Shown: positions 115-30,448 of the stretch, piece by piece | Layout: each line of letters begins with the position of its first letter | Position numbering within the stretch: position 1 is the stretch's first letter | Assembly: GCA_017467625.1 (NCBI GenBank) | Contig: JAFUSN010000003.1 | Span: 257,378 to 321,377 of the forward strand | DNA length: 64,000 nucleotides | Direction of reading: 5' to 3' | Source of the DNA: Clostridia bacterium | GTDB taxonomy: Bacteria > Bacillota > Clostridia > Christensenellales > UBA1242 | Translations under genes and position numbers: made by a program | Notes under the pieces: model-generated | Databases searched by the model: none | The model's input: the letters and a program-made list of their open reading frames with translations, nothing else | What the model was told of the DNA's origin: nothing

Positions 115-726
115 TTATAATTCTGAGGATGATTGGCTTTGATAATCCATTTTGTAGTTTATGCTTTTGAAGTAATCAATTATAATTTTAATGTATTTTT
201 CACGCAGCCATTCTTCGTCTTTAACTTGTGACTCAATAAAACGCACGGACCATTTATTTTCAATAGCGTTTTTGTAAATCTTATCAATTAATTGCTCCAC
301 TTTTCTAAAAACACTTCTTTTTGAAATTTCATAATCTGTAGCCAAATCTTCAGCTGTCCAATTATAAACATATTTCTTTTCTAAAAAATCCCATTCTTCT
401 TCACTTAGAGATTTATGCATTTGTTTTGTCATTATGTATATATTGAGCAGTGTATTTTTTCTTTCACTTAAATCAATAACTTGATCAAATTGTTTTGTTA
501 TTGAGCTATGTAAATTAAAAATATCAGAACTGAATGATATTGTTGTTGCCTGCAGTTCGATAATTTTATCTAATTGCTTAATTATGTTTGGAATAATTGA
601 ATGTGTTGTCAGAAATGTTTTTATCCAAAATTTAAATTTATCCTTTTCGGTTAATGATTTAATATAGTCTTTAATTTTTTTCTTTTGTTCATAGTCAATT
701 TTCTTTAATTTTGTTGTTTTTTTCAT
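115..726 (-). CDS. Putative small transcription regulator with C-terminal sigma-70 region-4-like helix-turn-helix (ECF/ArpU-like); function tentative
   Basis: ORF track gives 115..753. I prefer the internal ATG at 726 because GAGGAG lies 6 nt upstream (minus strand atGAGGAGaattttATG). The C-terminal segment LSEEEWDFLEKKYVYNWTAEDLATDYEISKRSVFRKVEQLIDKI fits the region 4.2 pattern (L..E...L...Y..g.t.eeiA..l.iS.rtV.r). No sigma region-2 motifs were recognised. It is divergently oriented to the giant gene at 1131. Confidence 0.5.
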   Translation of the reverse strand: MKKTTKLKKIDYEQKKKIKDYIKSLTEKDKFKFWIKTFLTTHSIIPNIIKQLDKIIELQATTISFSSDIFNLHSSITKQFDQVIDLSERKNTLLNIYIMTKQMHKSLSEEEWDFLEKKYVYNWTAEDLATDYEISKRSVFRKVEQLIDKIYKNAIENKWSVRFIESQVKDEEWLREKYIKIIIDYFKSINYKMDYQSQSSSEL

Positions 727-1117
727 AAAATTCTCCTCATAAAACTTGCCCAAGGTTTATAAGTTCATTTTAGTATACTTTTTTTATAAAAGTGGTTTAC
801 CCGTGACATGTTTTTTAAAAAAAATTTAAATATGTACAAATTAACCAAAAAGTCATGCTGTGTTTTTGAATTAACAAGTGTTATGTATGTATTACTATTT
901 TTTTTATTATATTTTTGACAATTTATTGTAATTTACAAAGTCAAATTAAATAGTTATTAAATAATAACATAACAAAAAATTGTAAAATATAATTTTACTT
1001 TAATAACTAAACTATTTTTTTTGAAAAAAAATTCGTTTTTTTCTTTTCAAAAACGACCTTTTATGTTAAAATTAGTTAGTAATATAATAAATTAATATAT
1101 GCTCGAATAATCAAACT

Positions 1118-1130: not shown

Positions 1131-1232
1131 ATGGTTAAGTCAAATTTAATTGGGAAAAATATTATTAAAACAATCGCAAGGTCATTTGTTTTGTTGTTTG
1201 TGTGCTTTGCCTCGCTTTTTCTTGCTGCCTGT
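1131..1232 (+). other. Lipoprotein (SPase II) signal peptide with lipobox L-A-A-C
   Basis: MVKSNLIGKNIIKTIARSFVLLFVCFASLFLAAC has a basic n-region (K3, K9, K13, R17), a hydrophobic core and lipobox LAAC with Cys34 at 1230..1232. It is followed by GKTSSSDSG, a typical flexible start of a mature lipoprotein. Confidence 0.75.
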
Positions 1233-4200
1233 GGCAAAACATCATCAAGTGACTCTGGTTTTGATGCTTATGGTAGATATCGCTTAAATCAGCCAAACAT
1301 CACCTACTATCGCGAAACCACAGATGGAAAAGTCAACCAGTACACTGGTTCGTTTTATGTTCCACTTGAATTCTATTTAAACAAAACATTGTCAGAGCAA
1401 ATTGAACACAAAAGGAATAGACTAGGTCTTTCTGCTAGTGCTGATGTTGATTTTATCAAAGATTATGACCAGGTTGGTTCACTTGCTATTGATGATTCAT
1501 GGGGTCAATTTGATTCAACTAATTATTCGTATTCTGATTATTTGTTTTGGGTTGATGGAATTGTTTATCAAATTCATGTCACCGTTGATTTTAGTAAATT
1601 AGTTAGACACGTGGGTTCAACTTCAAGCAGATATTTTAATTTAAGCAATTATATTGAGGCAACTGATGATCTTGATAACATTTTCCACTATTCTTACAGA
1701 ATTGGAAACGAAGGAATATGGAAAGATGCCTCAACAATAATTTCAACTGTTTACTACACAAGACGTGGAACGGATCAATATGATTTTGTTTCTGGAAGTA
1801 TTTCAAATAAAACCATTTCATTTGACCACTGCTTTTATATGGGTTTCAATCCATTTTTAGAGAATGGATCAATAAACAGAAGAATTAGAGTTAAAGCAAT
1901 ACCTAATTTTGATGTTACTCTTAATCCTTCAGCGTCATCACTGTCTCTTGGTCTTGATTATCACTCAAGCTCAGTTTATCGTGGAGATTCAATTTTTTCA
2001 AAAACAGTTATTTATGATGCGTACAAGTTAAACTTTGAATCATACTCTCCTAATAGCGCATATCTTGATTATGGCCAAATTTCATACAATGAAGACAATC
2101 CAAGCTTTTACTTTTACAATGTAAATAAAACATATTCATCTGCAACAAAAAAGAGTTACATTACAGGTGTTTCGGGATTTTTCCCTGCTGGACGAGTTGT
2201 TGAAGTTGAGCGTGAATTTGATAATACACTTACATCGTCAAATTACGCTTATGCTTCTTGGACCGCAAATAAAAAACAAGTAAATTCTCTTTTTAATGAA
2301 AATACTATTCATCGTGATAAATCAGTTTCAAATTACAGCGAAAGTCAGTTTGAGAACTATGATAAAGGCTATCATGCTTTATTTGGTGCTGATTCTGCCT
2401 TTAATGTTTTTGCTGTCAAATCATACAATGCTTTATCAGATGTTTATGGAAAAATAACATCCAATTCTCTATCCAGTCATGTTGTTGAAAATCTTAATGG
2501 AAGAACAAGTAAAATTTATGTTGAAACCTCCGCTGATTATAACAATTACATTTTCTATGCAAACTTTGTGAAGATTGATAATTTTTCAATTACTGGAACA
2601 ATTTTCGACGCTGAAAAAATATTAAACTCTTCAGAAAATCTTTTGAGTGACGTTAAATATCAAAAAATCAAAGTGTCTAGTGATGGATCAACGAATATGC
2701 TCGCCAATGGCAATGTAACTGATGGACAAGTTGTATTTGCCGGATTAAATTTTGGTGAATCAGTTCTTTTGTCAAAGCAGTTTATTGAAGATGATGAGAA
2801 TGTGGTTGAATATAATTTTTATGGTCAATATGTTTCAGATTTAACCATTGGGAATATTTCTGTTAGTTCAATCAAAAACACCGTAGCCAAAAAGGAATAT
2901 TTAACGGGAACAATTATAACTTCAGCCACAGGTTATAAAATTTATATGAAACCTGATGATGTTTCATTTGTTTATGCAAACACATCATTCTACATTGATG
3001 GTAATAGAGTTTTTGATCAAGATAAAAATGAATTTTTCAACTTTACTGTTGAGCCAGTATACAAAACATTTGATTTAATTGGAATTTCCATAATGGGAAC
3101 CCGATATGATTCAGAGAGTTCTCTTGTTGTTGGAGTTAAAGCATATGATGGAAGAAGAGATTATCCAATTGTTGATCCAACTGAACTTGGCATTTCATAT
3201 GAAGTTATTAAATCAGTAAACTCATTTGTTGATTCGTTGGGTTATGTAACAACAACGGCTTATGTTTCAGTTGTGTTGCCTGCTGATATTTCCCTTCAAA
3301 AGTATAATGTTATAACAAATAACTTCACCACTGCTTCAATCTATGAAAACAACAATTCTTCATACAATCAAATTCTTGCTCTTTCAACAAATGTAAATGG
3401 AATACAAAAAAACGAATATTATTATTTGACTGAATCTGAAATTAATAGTCGTTTTATAACCACTTTGTCTGGTGGTATTCTTATTTATAATAATGTAGTT
3501 TACTCATACAGTGTAAAGAACTTTAATGCGGATAAAACTTACTATCACTACAATTCTTCAGAATCTGACGACATCCTCATTCGTGTAACTGATTCAACAC
3601 AAACTAAATACATTTTACTTAAGCTTGAAAAAATACACTATTCAACGGATTCCTCAGCCGTAAATTACTTACAAACAGGTGCCTCCTCTGCTGAATCAAA
3701 TTACAAACTCATTTGTGAAGGCTTTGAAACTAAAGCAGGTGCAGATGCAGCGCTTAGTGCTCATAATGCAAAACAGAATGTTGATTATGCATACCTAATT
3801 TACAACGGATATATTTATTTTTCATATAATCAAGAAAACTCTCTTTCAAGCACTGAAGAAGCTAATTTTGGTGTAATGCCTACAACAACAATTTCAACTG
3901 GAATTACTGCTAAACAAGATTTTACAACAGGATACAGTAATGTTATTAATTTTAGTGACACTTCTTCCAAGATTGTTAAAAATCAAGCTATAACTGAAGG
4001 AATTACAACCTATCCATTTTCTGGTTCATATGACAAATGGAATATTTCAGCAGATATTTTGGATAAATATTTCTATACAGTTGAGATGAAATATAGTCCT
4101 GAAATTTCTGAAGCAGAGCAAGAATTTATTTTGGAATCAAAATATAGCGAACATGTTTTAGATGAATACAATGATGGTAATGGCCCATTCTACACAATTA

Positions 4201-7200
4201 TTATGAATAATCAACCATACTACATTGTTTCTAGTGAAAGTAATTCTCGTTATGAAATTTATATGACTTATGACTATACAAAATCAACTCAAAAATTTAA
4301 CACGAGAATTGGTATATTTGCTAAATCTGGTGATAAACAAATTTTTACTCATTCAAACGATGAAAACGATCAAGATGATGTCACAGAACACACCATTTTT
4401 GATAGTTACAAATCTGTTGAATTGTTATTGCAAGATGGAAAACCAAACAAAATAAAATTCACAAGAGAATGCGCAAAATATAATGAACAAGAACTCTATT
4501 TGAATAATGATATAAAAGAATTCTATGCAACATTCACCTGTTTTGGTGAACCAATTGATTTAGAAAAAGAATTTGGCATTGTAAGACATGAAATTAAAAA
4601 TGAAAAATTAGTTTTAACAAGAAAATCTGTAAAGATTGGTGAAACAATATATTATATCGATTTAAACAGTAGGTTTTTGTTTACAGATTTTAAGTGTGTG
4701 ACGGAGTTAAATACATCAGACAAAATTGTTTTCTCATATAATGATAGTAACGAATTAAAAATTGAATTTACTAATACTTTCACAACTTATATTGAATTTT
4801 CTTATAATGGAAAAACATACAGAATTATTAACTCATCACTTGATTTTTATGAGTTAAGTGATGCAACTGGAGGTTATGTTCCAGTAACTTCAATAACCTA
4901 CTATGATGTTAAAATAGATATGTCAACCGGTAGTTTCAGTTGCAAATTTGGAAGTGATTTAAAAACAAAAGTAAGCACTTCGCATTCAATCACCTTGGAA
5001 AAAGGTGAAAATAACATTGTTGATTCTTTGAAAAAATTAACTGATGAAAAAATTATTGGAAAGAATAATAAAGTAACTCGTGATAGTTCAGAGTATGTCA
5101 TTGGTGCATATGGACTTATAAAGGCAACAAAATACTTTGGAGGCAGAACAAACACCTCAATAATTTCAGTTGCTTATCCAACCGAGATGCAACTTTTAGC
5201 TTTCCAAATTGGTGAAGAATATTACTATTTAAATCAAGTTCAAGATGGAACGACAACTAAATTTGAACTTTATGCAAATGCATATTTTCATATAAATGAA
5301 ACAACAAGCGCTAAAGAAAAAGTTTATGTTGATAAATTCACTAATGAGGCGAAACTTAATGATTCAGCTTTTATTAGATCATCAATAGTATATTATTTTA
5401 ATTCAAATGAATTTAAAACTATAAATGTACCTGGAGTACCTGGAAATTCGATTGATGTTTTTGATTTATATACGGACATGGTTGCTTCAACGGTAAATCT
5501 TTATTCAAATGAAGATACCCATGGAGTTTTGTTGCGCATAAATTCAAAATATTATTATGCAACTAACGGAAGTGGAAGCAATACTGATTCAACTTTACAA
5601 TATAAATCAAGACAGTATTTATACAATACTTCAAATGAAATTGTTGCCAGTGGAAACGATAGCAATAGACAAATATATAAAATCTATCAAATTAATAAGC
5701 ATAATAATGAGTTTTTATTGCGTCTTAATATTCAATTGGGAGCAAAGTTGACACATGATGATTTAAATCTTACAGCGAATAACATTCATTTTCCTATCAA
5801 TACCTACAGTGGATTAAAGTCTACTGATTGGTTTGATATTGACGAAAATAAAGGTGAAGAATTCCAATACAATGCAAAAGAATCTAGTATATATGCCTTT
5901 TATGATGTTGAAGCCGTTCGAGTTCTTAGTGGTGGCAGCTTTGTAACTAAATATTACTTAACAACTCCTATTGCAAGTGAAACTACGTTTAATGGAACCT
6001 CTATACTTGTTTATAACTATTTTATATCAAATTTAAATGAACTTTTTGGAATTCAAGTAATTAGAGGAAGTCAAATTGCTCAAAATCGTGACTTTTATTC
6101 TTCATATTATTCAATTTTAGGTGGAAATCTTGATTTAAATAAATATTATTATGTAAAAGAATTGTCTGAACCTGCGGATATTGAAATATTCCAAGAAGCA
6201 TCTGCACAAAAGAATTCAAAGGTTCCATATTTATTAGAAAATTATATTGATGCAGATGGTAATGAACATACTGATAAAGTTTATACTAAAACAAAATTAA
6301 TTTCACAGCCACAATTTAGGGATCAGTCTAATGCTGTCATTACTTCTCTCCCACCAGTTAAAAATGGTGAAATTTCAAATATTTTAGAGCAAACTGATAA
6401 TGAAAAAATTTCATTTACACTGGGTGCACCAAGTGGCACTTTATACACTTCAACTGGTGCAGAATATAATTTTACAAATGCAGAAACAACAACTGGTCGT
6501 TCATATGCGATAGTTTCAAACATCAATCAGGGTGATGATAATACACAGGACCCTCTTACTGCGTATGGTTTTGATCAAGGTAACTTCATTTTAGAAACAA
6601 ATCAAAATGATACTTTTGTTAAAAACAATGTTTATTATCACATCAATATTGATGAAACGGATTATTGGCTTGGTATAATGCTTTCATATACCTTATACAT
6701 TTGTCAAAGTGGTGCCAATAGGCCAACTGCAGTTGAAATGTATGTGGATCAAATTGGTAATTGTTACGTCGTTTCACGAACTGAAAGAAATGCTGTTTAT
6801 CTTAAACAACTTGTAACAAGTAAAGATGAACCAATTATGTTTAAAGACTTATATACTTCCATTTCTGATGACACCGCTTCAACATTAAATAAAAATTACC
6901 TATTTGGAACCTATACTGATGAAAATAATATTTTCGAATGTGAATCAAAGTATTATATTTTAATCAATGGCATTTATTACACTTATAACAAAGACAATGG
7001 TAAATTTGAAACAACAACTCCCCCACACAACTTTGAAGCTAACAAGATTGAGGTTTCTGAAAAACAAGATATTGGTGTTGTATATAAAAACTCAAATGAT
7101 AATAAATTTTACTATTGTTTGCCTAATGGAAAGGTTTACACAACCAATAATTTTACTACAAGGTTTACATTAAATAAATACTATTATTCAAATGGATCTA

Positions 7201-10200
7201 TTCATTATAATTCTGGATATAAACGAGATGATTATAATCAAGATCAAGCAAATGGTTTACAACTTTTTACTTTAACAAATTATACTTATGATCCAGAATC
7301 AAGACAATTGTTTGATGGGTCAGGCAATTTCAGTGGATTATTTGTTCAATCTGCTTCAGTTATGAATTTGGTGGATGGAGAGTCTGTTTCAGCAATTAGA
7401 GTTGTTTATGACTACTTTACTGAGCAATATTATTTCTTTAATCAAAATCAAGGATTGATTTATAATGAAAAGAATTTAATGGAAAAAGATTCAATTGAAT
7501 ATAAAGAGTCTAATGGTTCATATGGATATCTTCAAAATGGAATCTGCAATAATATTAATTTCTACTATGTCAGTCAAGAAGATAAATTTATTTTTAGACC
7601 ATCAACTAAGTATTATACTTTTGTTAATTACAGTATCACAGCATATTTTGAAAATATAGGTTCAACAACGGCTGATGATGTTAAATGGATTCAATCTAGT
7701 GCATACCCTCTTTATGAAAATGGAAGTAATAAATCACTAATACAAGCAATTACAATGCATTCTGATACTGAAATCACATATTGGAAAGAACCAACTTTCA
7801 AGAACCAACTTTCAAGAAATGTAAATACAAAGTATATTGATGTTGGAACTTCTTCGCAGTATGTAATTTCAAAAAATCCAAGTTCATCATCAAGGGTCAT
7901 AACTCTTCTTGGAAAAAGAAAAGTTATTGATAATAATGAAAATACTCTTGATTATTCATCATATTCAATGTTGATTCCAACAGTAAAAGAATCACCTATT
8001 CTAGATATTAATACTGCATATTTTGATGTTGATTACACTTCAAAAGATAACATTACTGAGGGATTCCCAGGTGTAAAACTTTTGGATGGCATACCATATG
8101 TTAACCCAATGTTTGTGTTTAATGTTTATCACAAACAAGGAACCCCTGCATATATTGATTTGGCATTTTTGGTTAACAATGGATACTATGTTGAAATCAT
8201 AAATAATATAAGGCAGGATGGAAATAGTAAGTTAACGACTGATTTTACAACTATTAACTTTAAGTCAACAGCTGAAAACCTGTCTACTGGCGATTATGTT
8301 GATAAACTTTATTATATTGTTGATAATACAAAATATGAGCCAATTCTAGCATATCGAAAAGTTACCCCAGCTGAACAGTTAACTGCAGTTACATTTACAA
8401 CTTATTATAATAAATACAGAGATGATAGCTCTAGCTATAAATCAATATATATTCCAAATTTTGAGTATATAAATCTTACAAGTGATGAAAAATCCATGTA
8501 TTATGGGCTTGTTAAAGATGGAGACTTCTATTATCAACTTAACACCACTGCCCTAAAGTTTAATGATATAGCAATAAATGATGGCGATGATAGTGAAACG
8601 CTATACTTTGATGATGCAACAATTTTTGATAATGATAAGGTTGTTTATAGCGACATAGTTTATAGATTTATTAATGGGAACTTCTCCCCTTTAACTGCAA
8701 ATGAATGTGCAATTTGGGAAACTTCAACTGTTGCAATTAAAGATATTCCATACTTAGATGTCCATACCTACAAGCAAGATAACAATACTGGTTTAATTTA
8801 TTTAAGTTCAGACGTTGTTAATTCAGATGTTAACACAATTTGCAATGGTTTGACAGGTATTGATACAAATATAACAACCGCAAATTCAAATGATGTTAAT
8901 TATGATAATGTAATCGTTGCTGGTATCACAAATGCATACAAAGTTTCAACAAATGAAATTTCAAGTTTCGGTGATAATTTATATGGTTATTGGCTTGATA
9001 AGTCAATTCACTTACTTGATATTACAAAATCACAAAATACATTCCTTAAATGTGGTTCAGAATCAGTTGTTTTAACTGCATCACCACTTATCTCTTTTGA
9101 TGGTGAAATTTATTATAAACTTAAAGAATGGAAAGTTTATGTTCGTGAAAATTCTGAAAGAATTCGTGAACTTGGAAATGACTACATTAATGATTTAATT
9201 GGGACTTATAGAAATAACGCAATTTGTATATTCTCTTCAGATGTTTCTGGATATTATTTATTCTTACCTGTTTATGAAAAGGTTTACACAATGTCAATGG
9301 CAACAGAAGTAATTTCAGGCTCATTGAATGTTGGTGGATCAATTTCAATTAAGTCTTCTGAAAATTCTGTTGATATTGATGAAGAAAATTATCAAGAAAA
9401 TCTCTATTTCATTGACCCAATTCCTGGTTATGACAGCACTATTAATATTTCTTCATACATATTCTTTACTGGTAATTTTAATGATGGCAATCCAATTTTT
9501 GCACCACTTAACTTGGATAATAACAATTTGGTAATGAGATCACCTAATGCAAATAACTCAATTGCCATTATCAGTTTCATTGATTCTGGAAAAGCAAATG
9601 TTTTTGTTTATAAAATTAAACAACAAAACGAAGTTTTGTCAGAAGGTGAACCATGCTTTATTGAAATAACCAACACAAATGGTATGTATAGATTCAGCTA
9701 TAATAGGAATGGCTATGCTTTATCAAATGCCAATGTTTTATATACTAATCGTCCATTTGTTCAAACTACATATACGGATAAAAATGGACAATCAAGAATT
9801 GGATATACTTATGCCCCATCAACTTTAAATAGTTCTATTTCCACTTATAACGCAAGAATAACCAATGTTTTGACATACACATACAAATATACAAAAGATG
9901 GAACAGAACACAATGTAATGCTTTTAAATAATAATTTCTATACTGTTCCAGAGTCAATAATAAGTTCAATTGGATTAAATGAACCTGGAGATGGAACAAC
10001 AGAACTTGAAATAGATAGAGATAATATTTTGTCTTTATTAGATTCTTCCATTGCAAAACTTGTTATAAAGAAATTTAATGTTGCGCAAAATTCAAAAGAT
10101 GACTCAGTCAATGGGTATTATTCAAATACTGAAAAGAATTTGTCAACCGGTGAATTATATGCTGATGAAAATGGGAATATCCATACCACCTTGCAGTATA

Positions 10201-13200
10201 AAACTAATTACTATTATCGTGATTCAGAAATTTTATTAGAGGCAATTCCAAATTCTGGTTACAGATTTGAAAATTGGTATTTTGCTAGATTTGATGAAAC
10301 TTATGGTTGGACTGTTTCTGATAAAACTGTTCTTGACGAACTCAACAACTCATATGTTGATGAAATAATTAAAACTGAATTTGCTACAAATTCTGCAGCG
10401 ACAACTTATAAATTGGATTATAAGGGTCATTATCCATCTGGCGAACAATATGATTTAACATATACAATTTCAAGGTACGATAGCGACATTGTATTCTCAA
10501 ATAATATGCAAAAAGTTCCAAATTCAGTAAAAAGTAACTATTATGGAATCTTTGCAAATCTTGGGACATCAAGATCACATCCAAATTTTGTAAGAGTTTA
10601 TCAAATAGAAAATAATCCATCTGCTTTATATTATGATGAGCATGGTGCAATTCCAGTTCAACTTTCTGATTTTACAATTCAACTAAATAGCTTTGAAGAA
10701 TTATGGTCACATAACTACATTGGTTATATGAATTTCTATGATGCAATAAAAATAACATACCAATATGATAGTGACGGAAATATCAATGAAAGATGGACAA
10801 GAGTTGGAACTGGTGACAGTTATACCGTTTCAACAACTAAATTTACATTTAATGGTGAAACCATCTACCCTGTTTACACATACAACACCACAACACTCAA
10901 TTATGATATAGCTTATTACAGGTCAAATGAATCAGGAAATTTCTATGTTGATGAAAATAACGCACTTCATATTTATAAGTTACATTCAAATGTTAGAGTT
11001 GTGGCAAAGTTTATTGAGACTTACAAAGCATTTATTTTCAATGAAACTGAAGACGAATCAGGAATTTCTATTGAAGCAATTTATTATTATAATGAGGATG
11101 AATCCAAAACAGTCATTAGAACCAGTGCAAATGGCAGCAATTTAACTGCATTAGATACCCCATTAAAAACGGCTGCTGTAAGCAAAAATTACTTTGGTGC
11201 AACAGACACAAGTGAAACTTATCCTTTTAATGTTACAAAAGATTCAAGTGCTACTCCTGCAAAAACATTATTTGATAATGTGAATAATAAAGATACATCA
11301 TTTTATGAAGCTTTGTATTCAAAAAATGATCGTGATCGTTTTGAATCAATTGCTGGTGTAAACAACTTTACGGGTTCATTTGAAAGAAATGCATACGCAA
11401 TGCTTAGAAATGGAAAAGATAATCAACAGTCACTTTCATTGAAAAATTATTATTTTGATGTTGGAACCACCCTGTTCCTGTTAATTAGACTTCAGGCTGA
11501 AAAGCAGATAACTATTCATTCACTTGGTTTAAATCAAAATTACACGTTAAACTTTGTCATGGAACCAAATAGTGATGTTGTTAAGTCACTTAAAGGATCC
11601 GACAATATTGAATATGTTTATTATGTTCTAAAAGTTACATTTGACAGAAACATGGAGCAAACAGACGGAATAACAACTAATGCTGGAAATGAAAATCCTG
11701 AATATGTTCTTCATCCAGACAGATCTAAAAATTTGTCAATTGATGTTTTATCTGGTAACAATTTATCATTTTATGATTCATTATATGATCTTTATTTTGG
11801 TTTGTCTGCTTCGAAAGATAGTGATATTAATCTTTCACAAAACAATTATCTTAACTTTAATATAGATTCTAATGAATATAAGGTTAAAATTGCCTTTAAT
11901 AAGGCATTAAATTATACTTATGCAAACGCTTTTAGTTATTCAAAAACTATGGCGGAATCACTTTATAACCAAATGCTAATGCATGATAACAGTCTAATAA
12001 CTAGACTAGTTTCTACATGGTCAACCATAGAAGATAAAACTATAGTCAAAACTTTCAATAAAAATACATTTATTTTCGACTTCAATGACTATTTAGATGA
12101 ATCATCAACAACTACTGAAGTTTATAAAGCTATAAAATCATACTTTATTGAGGCATTTAATAAGGTTTATCTTGCACAAGAATCTAATAATGCTAATTAT
12201 AACTTTACAAAATCAATATCTACTCTTGAAATACTTTTAAATGAATTATTTAAGAAAATTGATAATAGCATTAATGTTAATGTTATTAACTCACCAAAAT
12301 TTGATGATTTATATTACTACATGACAGTTACTGGAAAAATTCATGTGGGAACTGTTTTCGTTGATTACATTGTTGCTGTTATGAATGATGATTTGGGTGC
12401 TTATACAAAATCCATAATTCAATCTTTAAAATATGAAACATTTGACAAACTTTCTGACTTTATAACTAGAGTAAACCAAGTAATTTATTCAGCAATTTAT
12501 AAACGTGATGCATTTAAGATAAAATATGCAAAACTATCTGAATCTTATAGCAAAATATATAATATGAATAACAGTCATGCTAGTGCCGACAGTAACACCG
12601 AAGAAGAATTATCAAGCATTCCGACAATATTCAATTCTATTAAAAAATATCAAGGAAATATATATGATGATGGTGGAAATTGGCGTTCTGGCAATGTTTA
12701 TAAATTTGGTGGACCATTTAGATCTGGAATACTGAACTATATTAACCTTTCAAGTGTTAATGTTTATACTGTTTCTGTATCAACAACTGTAATTGACTCA
12801 ATAACAACAAAATCAGAAAATAACGATGGACAAGAGATAGAAACTCTTTCAGTTGATAAATTTATTTCAAGTTCAAATAATTTTGATGAAAATCCATATT
12901 ATGCTCTAGCAAATTCAATTTACACGGCCGGTGGTGTTGCAACAAGTCTTGGCAAACTCACATATATTGGTTCAGCTCATCAAATTGATTTAGCTGGTCC
13001 AAATGTTGTAACCTATGTTGATGGGTATAATAAGGTAAATAGATTTGAAACAAAATTTGAAGACTCTCAAAACGAAAATTTGTATGCAGAGTCAACAAAC
13101 TCTACTGGCTTTAATAATTCATCTTATGGTGACATGACCTTTGCTGAATATTCAATTGTTCTCTGGGAAGGTCTAGATGTTGATGAAAGTAAAGGAATTA

Positions 13201-16200: not shown

Positions 16201-19200
16201 TTTCAAAAAATATCACTATTCACACTGACGATTTAAGTTATTATGATAATTTAAGTACTAGAAATGAATTCTTTAACTTCTTCAATGCAAAAATTAAATA
16301 TACTAACGCATCTAGAACAGTTATTGAGGAAACATTAACTTATGATATTTTTGAACATAGCTACAAAACTATCACAATTGCTAAGGATTCTGAAATAACA
16401 ATTACACCATACATTTCATCACATGTTGTAAATCGATATATTCCAGCCGATGTTTTGGAAGTTAAAGCCGGTGGAACAACTCGTCACAATGCAAATTTAG
16501 AGAGTAATAACTTTGTAATACAAACAAAAATCCCTACACTTATTTCATATACGATTCTTGATATGACACTTAATTTCTTAAGTTCATACACAGTAACAAT
16601 TGAGAGAACAATTAATGGACAAAAATTGAATTCGCAAGTTTCAAGTTTAACAACTCCAACACAATTAATGCCACTTATTAATGTCTCATCAGTAACTGAA
16701 TATTCAAATATCAAAGGAACCAGCTTCACTGAAACAGTATTCCTTTCAACACACAATAGTTATACAAAAGTTAACGATTTATCGTTTGTTAGAAATTATC
16801 AAAATGATTATGCAACTCTCACCTATCCAATTAATGGAACTCCAATAAATTACACAACACAAACAGTTTCAACATCAATTAATTTACCTTCAGATACACA
16901 AATTGAAAACTTATTATTTGATGGTTGGTATTTAAACGGAATATTATATTCAACAAAAGATACTATTAAATTGCCAATTAATGAAGTTTCAACCGATGGT
17001 TTAATCTTGATATATCAAACAAATGGTGAACAAAAAACAATTGTACAATTAGTTGAACTTACTTTTGATTCAACAAATAATAGATATAAATTTGAATATA
17101 ATTCATCAACTTATTATATTGATTTAACTGACAATCTTGAGAATTTTACTGGTTCAATTGTTAATGAGTCAAATGCATTTAATTATATATACATTCCTTC
17201 GGATAATATAACTTTAACTGCAGCATATTCAACTTATACTAAAGTTAGTTATCAAACAAATCCAACTACAGAAACTGGTGATAATCTTGTTCAAGCAACA
17301 CTAACAGGAAATCTTTTAGGAATTGTTTCAAATAATTCATCAATCACCTCAGAAGTTGGATCATATTCACTTGTTTATGATGAAATTGATGTAACTAATA
17401 GATATGAAAATATATTTACATCTAAATTAAGTTCTTCAAAAGAGTATCTTGGAGAATATAGGCTTATTTCAACAATTGACTCCTATTTAATTGATAATTA
17501 CCACGCAGCATATGTTTTAAGCGGTTCAAATCTGTTAATTACAGCAGGCCACTTAATTGGATACCGAGTAATTGGTTATCAGTACACTGGTAGAAGGATT
17601 ACTGTTTCATCAAGAATAAATGCATCTGGTGAAATAATTTATAGCTATGGTATAACCCCATTTACAACGCCAATTTCAATTGAATCAGTTTCTGAAAATA
17701 ATTCTATGGGTTATTTAACCATTGGAAACAATGAACTATTTACTGATATAACCATTACAGTTCTTTACGAAAAAGTTTATGAGGTATCAACAGTTGTTTC
17801 AACTATTGGTGAATATGATGATGACAAAATTGCAACAGCCGCACCTGGAGGTTCAATTGAAATTTCATCATATAATAGCAATAATGACATTGATGTTAGT
17901 GATGGAACATTCTACTCCGATACTTATGACGTCATTAGAATTAAGTGCATACCAAATGAAGGATACACATTTGTAGGTTTATATCTAAATGGCAAATATT
18001 TGGGTGCCAATGAACTAACATTCGACACTTATAATTATGAAAAGATTATTGATATAATTCCTGATAATTTAGGTTTTGCTGAAAATAATAGACAAAGTAT
18101 TGTTTTTGAAGCTAGATTTGCAAAAAATGTTGATTTTTCTATTAGAATTGAAATTAATAATTCCTCATCAGTAAAAGAAATTTTTGATAGATATGGAATT
18201 ACAAAAGAAAATCATTCAACCGGTTTAAATATCAATGTTAAATTACAATCAATCTATGATAGCATTTCATACGGATCATCAACTGATGAATTTAATATGG
18301 AATCAGCAACTGATCTTCAAACTAATGTTTGGGAAACTCCAATAACAAAGGTTAAACAAGGTCATGCATATGATAGTTCTCTTGAATATTTCACAGATCC
18401 TAATGGTGAAAATATTTACACATATTCACCTGCTGATTCTGCAAACTGGACAACTCTTCAAACTGCAACTGAAGGAAATGCTCTTTATGTTCGTGATAAT
18501 AGATATTTAATTATGAACTTTACAGTTGCCTATGGAACATATGTGCAACTTAGTGTTCCGGAGACAGATAATAATCAAATTAGATTATCATCTGGAACAT
18601 CAATTTATTACAAGGGTTGGCATTTATATAGACCATCTTTGCATGAACATCCTGTAATAACTGACAATAATATGCTTGAATTCTTTGCAACACATGACTA
18701 TTACAGTTCAACAATGGAATTTGTTGCAGTATTTAATACTGATTCATCAAGTCACTCAACTGATACTCATGCAATAGCTGAATTTATTGATGAAACATCA
18801 AATACATTGCTTAGAACAATGAACCCAGACAATATTGATATTTCCAATTATAATAATGGAATTCTGACAATAAGTGGAAATAACTACTTATTCACTGGTT
18901 GGTGGAATAGAATTTTAGATTCTTCTAGACCAACAACTGATATATTAATTTCAAATAATTTCTTGGAATATATAAACAAAGATCTTCCAAGAGTTAATAA
19001 TCTCATTGCGAAATTTGTTAAAATTAACCCAATTTCAATTACATTACCTACCCCACAATCAGGTTATATAACAACAAATCTTACATATAGATATTTCTAC
19101 ACTGCAACCAGTGTAACAGACAACAGAGTTCAAATTGTAACTAGCGATAGTGATGAAAGATTTAAATTAACATTTAACGTTCCAGTGGACACATATTTGT

Positions 19201-22200
19201 CATCAACAAAAACATATGCATATTCTGGTCACTATTACACAATCAATAATTCAGGTACAAGAAATAATTACGCAAGTTATACAATTCCTACTGAACAAAG
19301 ACTAAATAATACTATTGGAACAAGATATTCTCCTAATGTGGTTTATTATGCGGTTCAAAATTCAACAATTTATTATCTTGATTTAGTAAATAGAAAGGCT
19401 TACACAGAAGTCTATGTCGACGGAAATTCAATTGCATTTAGAAATGAATACACTGAAATAACATTCACAGCTTCAAGTGTTAAATTTGGAACTATTGAAA
19501 GAAGTATTGAAACTGGTCAGTATGTCATTATTGAAAATAACATTCATTTTCTCGCATATGATAAGTTGTATGCTGATTTGTTCTATGTGAACGAATCATC
19601 TTTAGCAAATTATAGAGTAAGTAACAGTATTGTTATTCATAATGAAAATAATGCCAATATTTCGATTGGATTATCAACATTTGAATCTGTTAAAAAAGCA
19701 GGATATAATTACAATGTTGAAAGCGATTATGATCATCTTTCAATTATAAATGGTGGTCACACAATAAGCTACATTGTAACAACTGTTGAAGATGATGGCC
19801 ATTATGGTTCAATTTATGATAATACTGCGGGTGGATCAATTTCATCAATTAAAATCAGAACAACCGGTGGAACAAATTCAACTTCCCAATATATTTATTC
19901 AGCCACATATCCAATTCTTGAAATTACTCTAGCACCAAATGTTAACTATACATTTGTGGGACTATATATCAATGATAAATATGTTCAAAATTCATATAAC
20001 AACCTTAACTTGATAATTGACTTGAGTTTATATGATACCGACCTTGTAATTGATGCAAGATTTTCAAAGAACATTTCAATTGAATATAGACTTTCTGTTG
20101 GAAGAAATGACTCAAGAGCATATATTTATGATGATCTCAAAATTATTAATAATGAACTTGCCCTTTCGGGAACTATATCAAATGTTTACAACTCAATTAA
20201 TGCAACATTTGGAGATGATATAGAATTTGGTTCATCAATTGTTTTTAGTGATATTGATATCAAACAATCAGCAGAGGCTTTGTCTTATATTATTACAGTT
20301 CCATATGGAACAAGGCTTACATTCTCAACTGAAAGAACGACAATTCATTCACAATTGGGCGCTGAGTATAAATTTAATGGTTGGTATGTATTTGAAAACG
20401 GTATTATAACAACAAATACACCTGTAACATCCAGTCCAACATTTACAGTTTATGCCGTAAATGATTCTGACGGAAATTCATTAAGTTTTGTTGCTGATTA
20501 TGAGATTGATGCAAACACACCTGGATCACTTTCAGAAATTAGTAACATTGAACTTTACACTTCAACCTCAACCACACCATTAACATTCAGTGAAATTGAA
20601 TTTAATTCAAGATATAAGAGAAATAACCCTAATGCATCAATAGTTACCATTGAAGGTAAAAAGTATTTATTTACTGGTTGGTGGCAAGTAATAAGAGATG
20701 ATTATAAGATTTTCGTTTCAAATATTGTTAACGCAACATCTCTTCCAAACCGAAGAATAGGAAGATATGTTGAACTTACGGATATTACAATAAAATTCTC
20801 TGAAAAATCTGCAATTTCTATTGAAGCAAATTTACATCAAGCATTTAGTTACATTCAATCAACAACTTTAAGTTCTTCAATGTTAAATGCAAGAATTGAT
20901 AGTGAAAGCAATACATTTGTTGTAACAACAACAATAAATAGTGCACTTACAAATGTACGTGTTAAAGCGCATAACAGTTATTATTTCAGAAATACTGAAC
21001 CAAATGAGTATGGTAATTATCCATATGATATTACATCTATATATCTAGATAGAATTGATGATGAATTTGTTATTTCAACAAACATCGCTGAAATAGCTGA
21101 TGTGTATATGAGATATTCAAAGATTTATTCAGGTGATGATGAATTTGCATATAATGTTGAGCATGAAATTCAAGAAGATAAACTTGTTGTGTTTGTTCAA
21201 AATAATGCAAACTCATTTAAAGTTTCAATTGTTGCTCAAAATATATCTAAAACTGAGGCAAACTCTAAAGCAACAGCATCTTCAATGATTTACATTGCTT
21301 CCACAAACATTCACTCACCTAGTCTTTCACAAATTCAATCTCTTGAATCATCTGTAAAAACGGTTTATATTAATGGACAAACAGTATTTATTTTAAATAA
21401 TACAATATATGAAAGTTTAGAAGCATACAAAACCTACTACGATTTAAGTAAACAAATAATTCCAAATTTGACTGGCTATTCAATTGTTACACTTTCAGGA
21501 ACATACTATTTAACAAATTCAAATACTTTTGTTGATAATGATAATAACCTAATTGACAATTCAATAGTATTTGGAGCATCAGACGCAGTAATTGTTATGG
21601 ATTACACAGTAAATTCATCAAATCCTTACACTCTTTATGTATATTCATCAGTAAGTTCAAAGTATCGACTTATAGAACCTATTGGTGCAAACAATGTTGT
21701 ATGTCAAATCAGAAACACTGAAACAAATGAAAATTTAACATTGCCAATTTCATTTAATGCTCCAGACAAATTTTATTCTGTTTACACAAAACTTAATATT
21801 TCATTAGTAAAAGAGTATCGAAAAGAAAGTTTTGTTGGATTTAAGATTTTATATGATAATGGAAAATCAATCTTATATGATGCAAAAACATATGGATATT
21901 CATTCTCAATTGTTGTTACTGAATCAATCACAATTATTGCTCAATTTGAAGATGCAGTTAACACTCAAGATCACACAAATTATGATGAAACAACTGTTCC
22001 AGATATAAATTATGGCTCGAGTGTCGTGTTTGGTGATGGTGACGAATCTCAAGATGAATACCCTGTAACACTTTATACTGCACAAGAAGGTTATTACATT
22101 CAATTGATTACAATTTATACAGTGGATATAAACGGTGATCAAGTAATATATCAATTTGATTTTGATTTAAAAACAAATTTATTCAACCCTAATGGTAATA

Positions 22201-25200
22201 TTCCTTCGGGTATAAGTGTTGTTGGTGACGATGAAAGCAAGGTTCAAGATTCATTTGGTCAGTTCTTCTATAAATCAGTTAAAGTTGCAGCGCCTGAGAA
22301 CGCAACTGTTGAAACGCTAACTTACAAAATTTATACATTAAACATAACTATTACTCAAAATGAAGTTGGCTCTTGGCCACAGATCACAATGCTCTATCCA
22401 CATGACTACTTGCAAAATAATATTTACAACACTCCTCGTTATGTTCAGTATCAAGGCATTATTAACAATGACACACTTCTTGAGTATATTAAAAATAATC
22501 TCCTTGATGGAACAAGAGATTATGAACTTGGAACAGGATTTAATTTTTCTAACACTCTCGTAACAGCTGGAACTTCTTCAAGATTTATTGATGGTTTCTA
22601 CACAATGAGTATTGATAACGCTTCTAATTATGTTTCAAATGTTTTACCAAAACTTGATGGAAACACATCTGATGTTGATGCAAGTGGAAAATTCACTAAA
22701 TACTTTATTCAAATTTCAACAAACTCCCCTGTTTCATACAGTTTAAGATATAACTTCCAGACTCAGGGTAAAATTAGAGTTTATGTTCATCCATATTATT
22801 ATGATACAAATGAATCTACTAATTACAATCCAAATCTCGAACAAAGTTTAATTTTACCAAGTGTCGATGAAAGAGAGTTTGTAACAAATTCAATTCATGT
22901 CGGAAATAAAGAAGATATAAATGGCAACATTCAATTAGATGACTCAATTACATACGAATTGAATAAAAATGATTATGAACATAGAGGTAATACGGGAAGT
23001 TCTGAAATTAAAGGTGTTTGGTACTATGAAATTTCATATTACTTCTCTGATCCACTTTCATTATATTTTGATTCTCAATATCTATCATTTGATAAATTCT
23101 ATTATTACGATACAAATAATAATAAACAATATTTATCAAGATCATACTATGAAGAAGAATATAAAGTTAATAACATGAATCCATTGACATTAAAAACGAA
23201 TAACTCATCATTAACAATGTCCTATGATGAATATTTGAAAATTTTGGCAGTCACAAGGAAAGATGTTGATCCAAAATTAATTACTTCTGAATCAATGATA
23301 AATTCACTTACTCCTGATGAATCTGTTTTAGTTCTTCATTGTGATGCAAAAGAAGATATTAAATCAACAATATTAAAATTTGATTTCAATCAGCCAACAA
23401 TTAATTTGAGTTTCAGAATGAATGATGATACATACACTTCAACAGTTGATGCATCATATTCAAATGGAAATCAAAAAACCGTAACTTTGTCAGCAGATAA
23501 TGGTAAAGAATATTCAATTACTATTCAAAGTTATGAGTTAAATGAAAGTTATTATATGCGATTAATTTATTCAAAAGAATTAATAGCAAATAATGCAAAT
23601 TTCACAATTAACCTAAAGAATTTTATACCTAAAGACCAATATAAAGGAACGGTATTAAATTCTGAAAATAGTAAAATTAAAATTTTTGAGACTGATACAG
23701 CAACATATAAATTTAACAATGCTTACTGCACTAACACAACTCAAACAATCAATATAAACAATGAAATAGATCAATCCCCTAAAATTTCATTTGTACTTGG
23801 TGATACTTTCTCAGATTCAAATGAAATTAATATTGAAACTCGTTTAATGAATAAGATTTTACTTGCAAATGATAAATCAAATGCTGGATTGATAAATATT
23901 TCAATTTCAAAACCTGATAAATCAATTAATGATAATCCAGTAATTATTTCAAATGAAACCACTACTGATTATGCGAATTATGTTCTGGCATATGCAGAAA
24001 CTAATTCAGTTGTAAGAGTGTTTGCAGAACATCCTAATAGATATATGTTTAATTCAAACTTAACAAGTTCACTAAGCAGTATTATTGATGTTATTGAAGG
24101 TCGTTCAACATCATATAGTTATAATGAAACATGGGCAACTCAAACTATTTCAACAATGAAATCTATTGCAACATTAACAACATCCCCTTCAACGGTTAAT
24201 CAACAATATACATATGTGCCTAATTCAAATGCAGCATTCTTAGTTGACTACTATGGTTGCGATTCAGAAATTCAACCAACTAAAATTGTTGGAATTATTG
24301 CTCCGGGAAATGCATCATCATTCATTCCAAGTGGTGATGATTCAATAATAACCACAATATCTTCATATGAAAGTGGCTTTAATTTCATTATTGAAATCAC
24401 TAAACTTGAATCCGAAACATCTGTTTCTTACAAACAACAAATCAATGGTGAATATTATTCAGCAACTCAAGTTATTGAAGAAAATGGAAAACTTTATACA
24501 ACAAATAAAGATGATAGCAAAGTTGCTATTTATTCAATACCAAAGTTTGAAAATACAACTATAAAGATGTTCTTAAATGATCCACAAGTTAAACAATACA
24601 TCTTGCTAGTTTCAGCAAATCTTAATAAAACACTTATTAGAACTGGAATATTCTATCAAATGATTCTTCCAGAACTTGAAACTTCTGTTGAAATTGATTA
24701 TGTAACCGAAAGAACAATTGATGAGTATGATGTAGCTGAATATTCATCAACATCAGTTTTATACACATTAAATACTTCAGCATCATTTACAACAGCAGGT
24801 TCTTACGATCCTAATGAAACATATTTCCAAGCTTCAACTAAAACAGCACCTGTTCATGGTATGACGCTTGATTATTTAGGAAAAACATACTATATAGTTG
24901 GAAATAGCACTTATGAATCAATTACACTTGATAATGGTGAAATTTCAACTCCTCTTTCAACACCAATCAACACTTCACTCAATGCGCTTAAATTACTTCC
25001 TCATTATGAGTATGACAATTATTATGTCGTTGCATTAAGACTTGGTTATTATTATTCACATGTTTCTCTGGAAAATAGAACATTCTATTATGGTTATAAA
25101 AACACTTCATCAGAAGAACCTAAATTCTATGAAATCATTAATGGAAACTTTGTTGAAAAATCATCAGTTCTTTCACCTAACTCAGATCTTTCAATTTCAT

Positions 25201-28200
25201 TCTTTGAAGATGATGTTTTATACACGCTATTAATTGATAAAGTTAAAGTAATTAAGCGCGATATGATAACTATTAATAGTGAAAGCTTATCAATTTCAAT
25301 TAAGGCAGATATTTATAATTCAGAGTATAAAGAATACACACGTTCATTGACTGGAGAACTTGTTCAACTTGATGAATCAAATTCTTCAAATAACAATGAT
25401 ATATTCCTTAAATTAATTCAAGAAAGAGAATTAGAAGTTCGTTCATTGGTTTATAATGATCAAAAATATTATATAAATAATGAATTCCAAACTTTAGTTA
25501 TTTATAAAGAAATTGAACTTATGAATGAGGTGACCGAGTTTACTTACGAAATTGATCCAAGTAATGACAAATTCATAATAATTCACGATTCTGATGACAA
25601 CACAAATACTGTTGAAACTCAACTGGAAAAACAAATGTTGACCTCAGTTCAGTATCAAAAACAAAATTACTTTGTTTATGAAAATAAATTATATATTTCA
25701 TATCCATACAATGAAGAATCTGTTGTTGATTTTGAATATAACATATATCCAGTTAAAATTACATATAACAACTTTGATTATATTCGTGAAACCGCTTCAG
25801 CAGATGAAACAATTACATATGTATCACAAGTTAATAACAACCGAATTACATATAATACAAGAACACAACTTGTAACAAATGAAGTTGATGATATCACAGA
25901 CAGTGCTGAAATTTCTAAAGTTAAATATGTGTATATTGATAATAATGAAATTGAAACATCGTTAGTAGTTAACAAAGCTTCAAGTGAATTATCATTAAAT
26001 TCAAGACTTTCAATCGAACACCCATCCTCAAAATCAACAAACTTAACCTTGAAATCAATAACTGCATCAGCACCACAAGGCTATATAATTAAAGGTTTTG
26101 TTGTTGCATCAAATTATGAACTTGCATCAGCAAATTCATTATGGATTTCATATAGAGTTGATGAGGGTGCTCAATTATTTGGCCTACAAGGTGAAGATTA
26201 TTATTCAAGATTTAAATATTACAATTTATATCAAATAGCATATGACGATTTATCTTCAAATTCAGATATGCCAAGTGCTTCAAATGCAACTATTACTATG
26301 AATAATAATGAAGTTACTGTAGAGTTAAACCTTGACATGAAATTATTTGGCGAATATCAAGTATATGCAATTTATTCACCTATAATCTATGAGATAAATT
26401 ATAATTTAATTAATATTCATGAGATAATTAATTCTGATACCGACGGAACTGAATATGCATATAAAGATAATTTCATAGAGACATATTATTCAAATAAAAT
26501 TTTTGAACAAGATCCAACTGTTGGATATGTAAAAGGACAAGTAATTGTATCTAATGGCAGAGATACATCACTTAGAGTATATTCAAATGCCGGAAGTAAA
26601 TATGTTGGCCATTCAGTTGCAAAAGACTCCCCTTCAACCACAATTGAAACTTTCTATGCTGGAAGTGCAGAAGAACTTGAAGATGCACAATTAACTATTC
26701 TTTCTAATGATATTTATAACTCTTCATATAGTATTATTGCACCTGACAGTTCAGTCGAAGTTGATGACACTAGATTAAATGTTTATGGTTCAGTAAATAA
26801 AGCTAATCACATAAAAATTCAAGATATAACAAATAATGTTAAATTATACTTATTCTTCAATTCAATCACCTATGCGCTTGATATTCAAATTACTGAAAGC
26901 GAAAATGGTGTCTACTTTAATAATAACTATGAAAGTGATTATTATTTGTCATATAGTCAGGAATTAACTAGAACAGAAAACTTCAACCATACTAATGAGA
27001 TAATTAAAAGTGATGATAATATTAAAAATATCCAAACAATATATCAAAATGGAAACTTATTATCTCAAGAAGAAGATAAAACTTTATTTGATGATAATAA
27101 AGGTTACTACAGAATCAGTGATGAATTATATAAAAACATTTCATCAACAGATCCACTTGTTTACACAATTTTTGATAATTATGGAAATTTAATTACAACT
27201 CAAGAAAAGTTAAATAGCACAGATAGTTCAACTATATCAAAATATAACAACTATATTGAAAAAATAACTCCAACTCCAATATTAAGCAAAACAATTGATT
27301 TCGAAATGTCTAGAAAAGTTGGTTTCTTGGTGTACAATTCAACATCAGAGTATGGTAACAGAAGTTATTTTGTTCCATCTCTATATGTATTATATTCTTC
27401 AAGTAATACTGTTCCTCAATCTTTGTCCCTTGTGCCAAATGGCCCATTTGAATACTATGTTGATAAAAATGGAAACTATTATGTACAAAGAACAATAAAT
27501 ATGTATTACATTAAACGAGTATCTGCTGAGGGATCTATAGATAACCCATATCTTGATCCAACAATTTCAGTTGAAGGATATGGCAACGGAAATACAATTT
27601 CAACATCCGTATATTTCCGTGCAATTCCATACACAGCATATGAAATTTATGCGGAATACGGAGATGAGTTTGTTGAAAATGAAATTAATAAATCAAAAGG
27701 CTTACAAATTTATCAATCAAAAAATATTGATAAAACAATAACAGAAGATGTTGTTTCATTCTCATTGGATAGATCTGTTCGAACAACAATTTCAACAAAT
27801 GTTGCCGGTGAATCAATAACGGCAAACAACACATACATTTATTCTATATTCAATTTAAATAAATCCGCAAATTCAAATGAGTATACTTATATTGATGGAT
27901 ATGTTAATCATGTTCCAATTGATGAAATTGAACTTCACACTATTGGAACATTTACCTATTTAACTCATAAAACACCACTTGAAAAGAATGGAAGGACATA
28001 TTATCTTGCTGTATCTGCAACACCAAAAGAAATTGGAACTGATGGCGATGATTGGTGGATTAATTACACAACCAGTTATATTGATAGAATTCTTTCATAT
28101 TATAATGATGATAAAAACAATGTAGTTTATAAAGAACAATATGAAAAGTATGCAAAAACATTGATTTTTGGAACTGATTTTGATACAGCTCTTGCAAATA

Positions 28201-30398: not shown

Positions 30399-30412
30399 TG
30401 ATGAGCCTTAAT

Positions 30413-30448
30413 AAAAAACCAATCTTTTGATTGGTTTTTTGTTTTTTT
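30413..30448 (+). terminator. Rho-independent terminator of giant gene 1
   Basis: AAAAAACCAATC-tttt-GATTGGTTTTTT: perfect 12-bp stem, 4-nt loop, then G + T7. It starts 15 nt after the TAG stop. Confidence 0.8.

Follow-up and report, generated by a model that had tools for sequence, protein, structure and literature searches.

A giant open reading frame with a lipoprotein-type signal

We analyzed a 64,000-nt stretch of a metagenome-assembled genome (MAG) assigned to the Clostridia (Christensenellales, UBA1242; assembly GCA_017467625.1, contig JAFUSN010000003.1, positions 257,378–321,377), to which we refer as the window and which has a GC content of 29.8%. Two giant genes on opposite strands, P1 and P2, together take up about 57 kb of it (Table 1). 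We are concerned mainly with P1, an open reading frame (ORF) of 9,755 codons that encodes a putative lipoprotein of 1.1 MDa. It had been picked out in an earlier reading of the DNA made without database searches (the original prediction). The gene lies between a phage-derived module, which is transcribed divergently, and a gene for a 664-aa membrane protein, q664.

The terminal TAG is the sole in-frame stop of P1 and is directly followed by TGA TGA, so that three successive in-frame stops close the frame at 30396–30404. No TGA occurs in frame, and each of the 44 Trp residues is encoded by TGG, which indicates that the gene is written in the standard genetic code. At this base composition, a random codon is a stop with a probability of 0.082 and the expected open run is 12 codons; the probability that 9,755 codons would stay open by chance is therefore about 1e-363. 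The longest open runs in the five other frames across the gene are 54–100 codons between stops. The original prediction had put their maximum at 91 aa, a trivial difference that leaves intact its point that these frames are short.

We scored a lipoprotein signal by a positively charged n-region and an h-region of 7–22 residues that terminates in a lipobox ([LVI][ASTVI][GAS]C). The N-terminus of P1 reads MVKSNLIGKNIIKTIARSFVLLFVCFASLFLAAC followed by GKTSSS, and all of these elements are present: a positively charged n-region (K3, K9, K13, R17), the hydrophobic stretch SFVLLFVCFASLFLA, and, closing the h-region, the lipobox L-A-A-C with its Cys34. The segment that ends in this lipobox (aa 11–37) is the one hydrophobic segment in all 9,755 residues. 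We found no second hydrophobic segment, no C-terminal transmembrane (TM) helix, and no LPXTG-like motif after aa 8832. Sequences resembling promoters occur upstream of P1, and a consensus scan finds them no more often there than in shuffled sequence. The frame, its ATG and Shine-Dalgarno sequence, the lipobox, and the terminator were thus all as first described.

Table 1. Features of P1 and of neighboring genes in the window
Feature	Position	Strand	Remarks
P1 ORF	1131..30398	+	ATG start, 9,755 codons; gene for 1.106-MDa putative lipoprotein
Shine-Dalgarno AAGAGGG	1118-1124	+	6 nt 5' of ATG; read from sequence
Candidate sigma-70-type promoter, TTTTCA-17-TAAAAT with TG	1044..1072	+	Inferred from consensus scan only
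Second candidate sigma-70-type promoter of P1	964-993		Consensus scan only
Signal peptide with lipobox LAAC	1131..1232	+	Cys34 codon at 1230-1232
Flg_new_2 (divergent InlB B-repeat)-like element	10161..10280	+	aa 3011-3050; 20.7 bits (cutoff 23.6)
Flg_new-like element	16815..16937	+	aa 5229-5269; 17.7 bits (cutoff 27)
Internal duplication, first copy	17733..19271	+	aa 5535-6047
Internal duplication, second copy	19761..21098	+	aa 6211-6656
P2-type (Flg_new-type) domain, single copy	26283..26612	+	aa 8385-8494; P2-repeat hidden Markov model (HMM) 40.3 bits, E 5e-14
Conserved C-terminal region of P1	26799..30038	+	aa 8557-9636; 16 hits, alignments end near query residue 1080
Intrinsic terminator	30410..30443	+	15-bp stem AAAAAACCAATC-TTTT-GATTGGTTTTTT, then T-run
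p212, small sigma-factor/Q-like regulator	115..753	-	Divergent from P1; first gene of phage-derived module
q664 (664 aa)	30495..32489	+	N-terminal signal, extracellular region with SH3b-like domains, C-terminal TM helix, basic tail
tRNA-Leu (anticodon CAA)	34166-34251	+	Between esterase and p242; strand opposite to neighbors
p242 (242 aa)	34344-35072	-	No Pfam match; conserved, housekeeping-like
OYE/Pyr_redox fusion protein (702 aa)	36656-38764	-	Unusually low GC, 23%
P2 giant ORF	38808..63935, past right end of window	-	8,375 aa inside window

P1 is intact and conserved in length

Other assemblies contain the same gene. An ENA scaffold (432,826 bp) and a Logan contig (94,942 bp) each call a 9,755-aa gene 5' of a 664-aa protein, and over the stretch compared, the final 9.9 kb of P1 and further, both are identical to the window. 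A third Logan contig (L092) is identical to window positions 1–1677, and an exhaustive protein search returned a 4,611-aa fragment (P0003) that is 100% identical to P1. The original prediction had raised the possibility of collapsed repeats, and we found no tandem DNA repeats in the gene that would be liable to assembly collapse. Codon usage is native: the relative synonymous codon usage correlates with that of housekeeping neighbors at r = 0.96, and the GC content at third codon positions (0.17) resembles theirs.

An N-terminal alignment of P1 with two 38%-identical fragments was used to locate an ortholog in another species, on contig CALWKE010000002.1 (413,842 bp), and a C-terminal alignment found its end. 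This ortholog starts at 241,883 and stops at 271,822, a span of 29,940 nt (about 9,979 aa) of which 3,022 nt (255,306–258,327) is unseen, and its reading frame is the same at both located ends. Over all 8,980 residues visible it is colinear with P1, with an identity of 43.5% for aa 1–4480 and 39.6% for aa 5377–9755; the best-conserved blocks are aa 1–500, 2251–2750, 3001–3500, and 5377–6376. Length is therefore conserved between homologs (about 9,979 aa versus 9,755 aa), a point on which the original prediction had suggested that its claim be checked. A low-coverage (3x) contig from a CALWKE-like species (L081, at 3690–3976) carries a P1 homolog that is broken after 1,155 aa and resumes in another ORF; as the high-coverage CALWKE contig is open at this site, the break probably reflects an error in sequencing or a pseudogene at strain level.

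More distant relatives were also found. A MAG of 44.6% GC (L089) encodes a colinear homolog of at least 4,075 aa with a lipobox, and C-terminal orthologs of 25–37% identity occur, with synteny kept, at four further loci (L004, L005, L007, and L110). The order CysRS (cysteinyl-tRNA synthetase) / p242 / NUDIX / q664 / P1 C-terminus is common to L004, L005, L007, L091, and L110. The lipobox Cys is in register in seven of seven homologous N-termini (P0001, P0002, L087, L088, L089, L094, and L097), with VAC, VSC, TAC, and VAC among the lipobox residues at the position of P1 Cys34. In our view, P1 is thus an intact gene under selection, and its giant product, predicted to be exported, carries a lipoprotein-type signal. 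The agreement of the assemblies, the colinear ortholog, and the conserved lipobox Cys bear out what had originally been proposed, namely a single genuine giant gene.

Relatives of P1 are few. In an exhaustive search of 1.84 billion representative proteins, 16 matched the last 1,199 aa of P1, all of them contig-truncated fragments. The region that they define contains invariant residues (alignments A3, A6, and A7), and the last ~120 aa of P1 is divergent. In a word-index search, which is swamped at 25–40% identity, aa 1–1500 returned two fragments only, the C-terminal 1,256 aa returned no match, and a 17-sequence profile returned two. P1 relatives were not found in the metagenome-contig scans or in a genome-contig scan with aa 1–4999; a further genome scan recovered the same two MAGs only. 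None was found in IMG/VR viral contigs (pattern scan with the N-terminal alignment) or among 50,697 deposited phage genomes and 72,556 plasmids. By these comparisons, P1 represents a new, rare, lineage-restricted family of putative giant lipoproteins.

Most of P1 lacks recognizable domains and repeats

The P1 product has a calculated mass of 1,106 kDa and an isoelectric point of 4.7. It is rich in Ser (10.6%), Asn (9.8%), Thr (8.7%), Tyr (8.5%), and Ile (8.5%) and contains 29 Cys residues (0.30%), in keeping with the nearly Cys-free, N/S/T/Y/I-rich body noted originally. No match above threshold was obtained in Pfam, searched with the two halves and with ten tiles of 1,000 aa, in NCBIfam, or among PDB sequences, searched by phmmer and with ortholog profiles.

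The original prediction had recognized InlB-B-type motifs from about 10 kb onward, and had suggested a search against the Pfam families PF09479 and PF18998, in which P1 stayed below both cutoffs. Faint elements of this kind do exist (Table 1), but they are weaker than the claim implied, being below Pfam thresholds and covering less than 10% of P1. The Flg_new_2-like element is probably a real, single divergent domain, because the aligned site in the L089 homolog scores 24.4 bits, above the cutoff of 23.6. The P2-repeat HMM detects 34 copies in P2 and one in P1. A strict GYxFxGW-type motif was found three times in P1 (1.2 expected), and profile-profile comparison (hhalign against the P2-repeat profile) gave only faint additional pieces. 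P1 reaches the Pfam gathering threshold for neither Flg_new nor the InlB B-repeat and contains no tandem array of either; as judged from these profiles, the whole protein does not belong to this group. The first ~9 kb and the last ~1.3 kb had been described as matching nothing, which is correct for those segments but not as a limit, as practically the entire 29 kb is unmatched.

We tested P1 for repeats by tile blastp, by phmmer with a shuffled control, with HMM tiles from the ortholog alignment, and by hhalign against the P2-repeat profile (whole-protein blastp of P1 against itself hides off-diagonal hits). The only clear internal repeat is an ancient duplication spanning about 500 aa, which the CALWKE ortholog shares, and more than 90% of P1 is without a detectable domain or repeat. 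The sequence has an entropy of about 4.0 bits. In a charge-hydropathy plot, about 80% of 100-aa windows lie on the side of folded proteins, and the longest run lacking a hydrophobic residue is 14 aa, which argues that P1 is not a disordered or low-complexity tract. Beta-alternation and heptad patterns did not differ from those of shuffled sequences.

P1 is flanked by a conserved membrane protein gene and a phage-derived module

The q664 gene adjoins the 3' end of P1 in every lineage examined (the window, L091, L004, L005, L007, and L110) and has its own promoter-like site past the P1 terminator, at 30461–30488. Its product is a type-I membrane protein with an almost invariant C-terminal TM helix (LQIVGCILIAINIGLLILIL; alignment A8). 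The Pfam domain SH3_3 is matched in three of six q664 orthologs (best E 6e-6), and because SH3b-type domains typically bind peptidoglycan, this hints at the presence of a cell wall. Beyond q664 lie genes for a NUDIX protein, an Abhydrolase_3 esterase, tRNA-Leu(CAA), p242, CysRS, and an OYE/Pyr_redox protein.

On its 5' side, P1 adjoins the regulator gene p212 in the window, L087, L088, L094, and L097. The p212 protein matches phrog_79 (E 1e-4), and its L094 homolog matches phrog_36 (1e-10) and phrog_1740, a sigma factor (6e-9). Contig L092 extends 8.4 kb past the left edge of the window, and at 1564–10062 it encodes TerL, a P22-like portal, a putative scaffold, a major head protein, and ORFs without an assigned function; in L094, the last gene of the module encodes a holin, about 13.6 kb away from the regulator, and we saw neither an integrase nor replication genes in the module. 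The module lies directly 5' of P1, in divergent orientation, in five lineages (the window via L092, L087, L088, L094, and L097), which are all those with a visible flank. Its proteins diverge at rates similar to those of housekeeping proteins (identities of 81/73% for the major capsid protein [MCP] and 73/71% for TerL versus 72/69% for CysRS), which fits vertical inheritance rather than sporadic gain of a prophage. The MCP is at most 30% identical to that of any deposited phage. The module may be a domesticated phage or an element resembling a gene transfer agent (GTA). In an IMG/VR contig (L103), a q664-like gene (115–780; 26% identity) stands instead of a P1 homolog beside the regulator and head module, and that lineage may lack the giant gene or carry it elsewhere.

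P2, which is called at 9,145–9,190 aa on longer contigs, is strongly repetitive. It contains at least 34 copies of a ~110-aa unit, its summed Pfam Flg_new score is 68 bits, and by sequence it is a classic Flg_new repeat protein. Homologs of P2 occupy the equivalent syntenic position in L003, L005, L007, and L066. Relatedness between P1 and P2 is limited to one shared domain.

Related MAG loci hold ordinary cellular genes (TetR, ABC/FtsX, the aspartyl-tRNA synthetase AspRS, and HAD), and CysRS similarity declines smoothly through MAGs labeled as Clostridia, Bacilli, and other phyla. Because of these cellular neighbors and the smooth CysRS gradient, we read the replicon as a bacterial chromosome. 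A megaphage origin was rejected on account of the bacterial CysRS gradient, the cellular neighbors, and the lack of an internal TAG. The host of P1 is an uncultured low-GC (about 30%) gut bacterium, and the sampled gut was probably that of a ruminant.

Comparison with known giant surface proteins

The closest described kind of protein is the giant surface protein with Listeria-Bacteroides (Flg_new) repeats, known from Clostridia of the mammalian gut with lengths of 10,000–30,000 aa (West-Roberts et al. 2023 preprint, doi 10.1101/2023.11.21.568195). P2 belongs to this group. P1 resembles its members in coming from a gut Clostridia-type MAG, in its length of about 10,000 aa, in being secreted or surface-exposed by prediction, in its acidic, N/S/T/Y-rich composition, and in containing a single P2-type domain besides a few faint Flg_new-like elements. 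Those proteins and P2 are arrays of tandem repeats, whereas P1 has only one ancient duplication and carries a lipobox anchor.

The Giant1–5 proteins of Apilactobacillus kunkeei are extracellular proteins of 3,000–8,000 aa with a signal peptidase I (SPI) signal, arrays of imperfect repeats (13–51 copies), and C-terminal DUF5776/SH3b domains (PMC12863079). Like these proteins, P1 is encoded in the AT-rich genome of a host-associated member of the Bacillota, where clustered giant genes occupy a sizeable share of the local DNA; it is also Asn-rich (about 10%), poorly annotated, and fast-diverging, and a presumed elongated surface structure. SH3b-type wall-binding domains, which lie inside the kunkeei giants, are found here in the partner q664. 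However, P1 has a lipobox and neither a repeat core nor DUF5776, which sets it outside the group, and no sequence homology was found between P1 and Giant1–5.

Hodor conjugative megaplasmids encode giant surface proteins of 7,309–7,704 aa with MBG/S-layer domains and proposed sortase anchoring, on elements of 44.6–47.1% GC (PMC12934698). As hallmarks of this system we used MBG (YGX) or S-layer domains, a sortase/Sec module nearby, and a replicon of 44–47% GC with Rep_3/Par and a type IV secretion system. The resemblances are that P1 is a conserved, uncharacterized giant secreted protein of gut Bacillota with conserved 3' neighbors and phage genes on the replicon, and that the contigs carrying P1 and its CALWKE ortholog (413–433 kb) are in the size range of Hodor elements. 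The differences lie in the proteins, as neither P1 nor its L089 homolog shows an MBG or S-layer hit or an LPXTG, and in the DNA, as the window has 29.8% GC, a CysRS with a vertical-looking gradient, and CysRS, NUDIX, esterase, and tRNA-Leu genes as neighbors. P1 is thus no Hodor giant, and identity of the replicon with a Hodor megaplasmid was rejected because GC and domain content differ.

Giant adhesins of the Ebh/Embp type in Gram-positive bacteria (about 1.1 MDa) and of the RTX/type I secretion type in Gram-negative bacteria (LapA, SiiE, MpIBP) are built of tandem domains (FIVAR-GA, Big, and others), tens to hundreds per protein, and are anchored by a C-terminal TM helix, by LPXTG, or by an N-terminal plug that sits in a pore of the outer membrane. 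P1 is of the same size class, and in both cases one end is anchored and the other is distal. Unlike Ebh-like adhesins, P1 lacks both a C-terminal TM helix and the combination of LPXTG, hydrophobic segment, and basic tail; unlike RTX adhesins, it has an N-terminal signal, no RTX or Big Pfam hits, and no tandem repeats. It falls into neither class. As far as its sequence tells, P1 works like a giant surface fiber yet belongs to none of the families compared.

Proposed role of P1 and alternatives

We think it probable, though well short of certain, that P1 is a genuine gene for a lipid-anchored giant surface fiber that serves contact with, or adhesion to, host material, particles, or other cells. 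The adhesive role, the lipidation, and the extended fiber geometry are what we infer from the sequence, and a function in adhesion or host contact is suggested by the size of the protein, its export signal, and analogy. The preprotein would be exported by Sec, and Cys34 would be diacylglyceryl-modified and the signal cleaved by signal peptidase II (Lgt/LspA processing), so that the N-terminus would be anchored on the outside of the cytoplasmic membrane. The remaining ~9,700 residues would project outward, through and past the wall, as a colinear series of folded modules, each unique and non-repeated, a handful of them InlB-B/Flg_new-like. Such a fiber, if extended, would reach a length on the order of 0.1–1 µm. 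Because the anchor is at the N-terminus, the C-terminus would be the distal, interacting end, with the conserved aa 8557–9636 at the tip, and P1 may act jointly with the SH3b-type membrane protein q664.

Several observations weigh against this proposal. The agreeing assemblies are not fully independent, as they derive from the same study or strain, and part of the CALWKE ortholog (the 3,022 nt mentioned above) is unseen. The Pfam, NCBIfam, and PDB sequence searches found no adhesin domain, lectin, or enzyme in P1. Structure prediction of tiles, which had been suggested as a check on the original prediction, allows no fold to be claimed: AlphaFold2 with three-sequence alignments gave predicted local distance difference test (pLDDT) values of about 31 for the two tiles modeled (31.2 for aa 35–1190 and 30.5 for aa 8557–9755). 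Because these models failed, the idea of a beta-rich module chain draws on composition and on the few faint Flg_new-like hits. In addition, a simple adhesin model does not explain the conserved adjacency of P1 to the phage-derived module.

This adjacency could mean that P1 is functionally part of the neighboring element (domesticated, GTA-like, or a defective prophage), which comprises a sigma-like regulator, terminase, portal, scaffold, major head protein, four ORFs of unassigned function, and a holin, and with which P1 might be co-regulated. The giant protein might then be a structure for recognizing or attaching particles, or a lipoprotein for superinfection exclusion or shielding. Such a role would suit the position of the module next to the P1 N-terminus wherever the flank is visible, the housekeeping-like divergence of its proteins, and the small size of the L094 module (only about 13.6 kb, with integrase and replication genes not seen); moreover, superinfection-blocking lipoproteins encoded by prophages are an established class. 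However, adjacency by itself is no proof of common function, the genes in conserved synteny 3' of P1 (q664, NUDIX, esterase, tRNA-Leu, and CysRS) are cellular, P1 relatives were not found in IMG/VR by pattern scan or in the deposited phage genomes and plasmids, and in L103 the module adjoins a q664-like gene without P1. We also know of no precedent for an exclusion protein of 1.1 MDa, and on balance we consider this explanation unlikely. A broader version, in which P1, q664, p212, and the ~14-kb module would form one ancient, vertically inherited functional unit of this gut lineage, and P1 would also account for ~9,000 residues of folds without relatives in present family or structure databases, strikes us as a long shot. 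If true, it might describe, for example, a GTA-like domesticated particle system with P1 as its docking or recognition structure or as a shield against the cell's own particles.

The conserved C-terminus lends itself to another interpretation, that P1 is a delivery or effector protein in which the last ~1,080 aa form an enzymatic or toxin-like head (polymer-degrading or cell-targeting, for example) on a long stalk. This region is the part of P1 recovered from the largest number of lineages and has many invariant Tyr, Asp, Glu, Pro, and Gly positions, and its low-confidence model shows more helix than that of the N-terminal tile, which may be a weak pointer in the same direction. Against this, searches of Pfam and NCBIfam assign it to no enzyme or toxin family, and it matches no PDB sequence; in the tests made here its extreme C-terminus did not resemble a polymorphic toxin; its conservation (35–42%) is not above that of aa 1–500 or 2500–3500 (51–56%); and the next gene encodes a 664-aa membrane protein, with no small immunity-like ORF in evidence. 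We regard an effector as distinctly improbable. Still less credible to us is an S-layer-like coat or envelope substitute on a wall-less or wall-reduced cell. Wall-less Mollicutes usually display surface proteins by lipid anchoring, the genome is very AT-rich, and two giant genes fill most of the window, all of which would be in accord with such a cell; however, TGA is not used for Trp, CysRS relatives form a smooth gradient in Clostridia-labeled MAGs, q664 carries domains of a typically peptidoglycan-binding kind, Pfam searches detected no self-assembly or S-layer domain in P1, and a 1.1-MDa monomer per lipid anchor would make a poor lattice former. A cell-envelope substitute had been among the roles originally proposed, and with a standard code and SH3b-type domains in three of six q664 orthologs that idea gained no support. 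Finally, P1 could be an artifact, given that the sequence stems from a metagenome assembly and that the concordant assemblies are all of one study: a chimeric assembly, a repeat that collapsed, or a pseudogene in decay that has stayed open by chance. We take an artifact to be effectively refuted and its residual probability to be negligible, as the ENA and Logan product lengths agree, the gene has no tandem repeats, another species has a colinear ortholog of similar length, and a chance open frame of this length is so improbable.

Significance of a non-repetitive giant

If P1 is a surface fiber, as we favor, it does not fit the usual account of giant bacterial surface proteins, which is growth by duplication of tandem repeats. 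Some 9,700 unique residues have remained colinear and of near-equal length at an identity of only about 40%, which argues for selection on a defined architecture. P1 is an unusually large candidate lipoprotein, and it is distinctive in its lipobox anchoring, its near-absence of repeats, its opacity to domain and structure resources, and its linkage to an SH3b protein and a phage-derived module. The family represents a large dark part of protein space, unreadable by current profile libraries or by AlphaFold2 with shallow alignments. The share of the window devoted to P1 and P2 points to a heavy investment in surface structures by an uncultured low-GC lineage of the mammalian gut, and giant structures of this kind may determine how these bacteria attach in the gut. 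The conserved phage-like module near P1 is a separate lead.

Other genes downstream of P1

Two of the more distant neighbors were compared with their counterparts in related genomes. The p242 protein is 57–69% identical across related MAGs, and its gene always directly adjoins that for CysRS. The OYE/Pyr_redox protein is far more diverged than the adjacent CysRS, being 31–37% identical to its syntenic counterparts versus 67–74% for CysRS.

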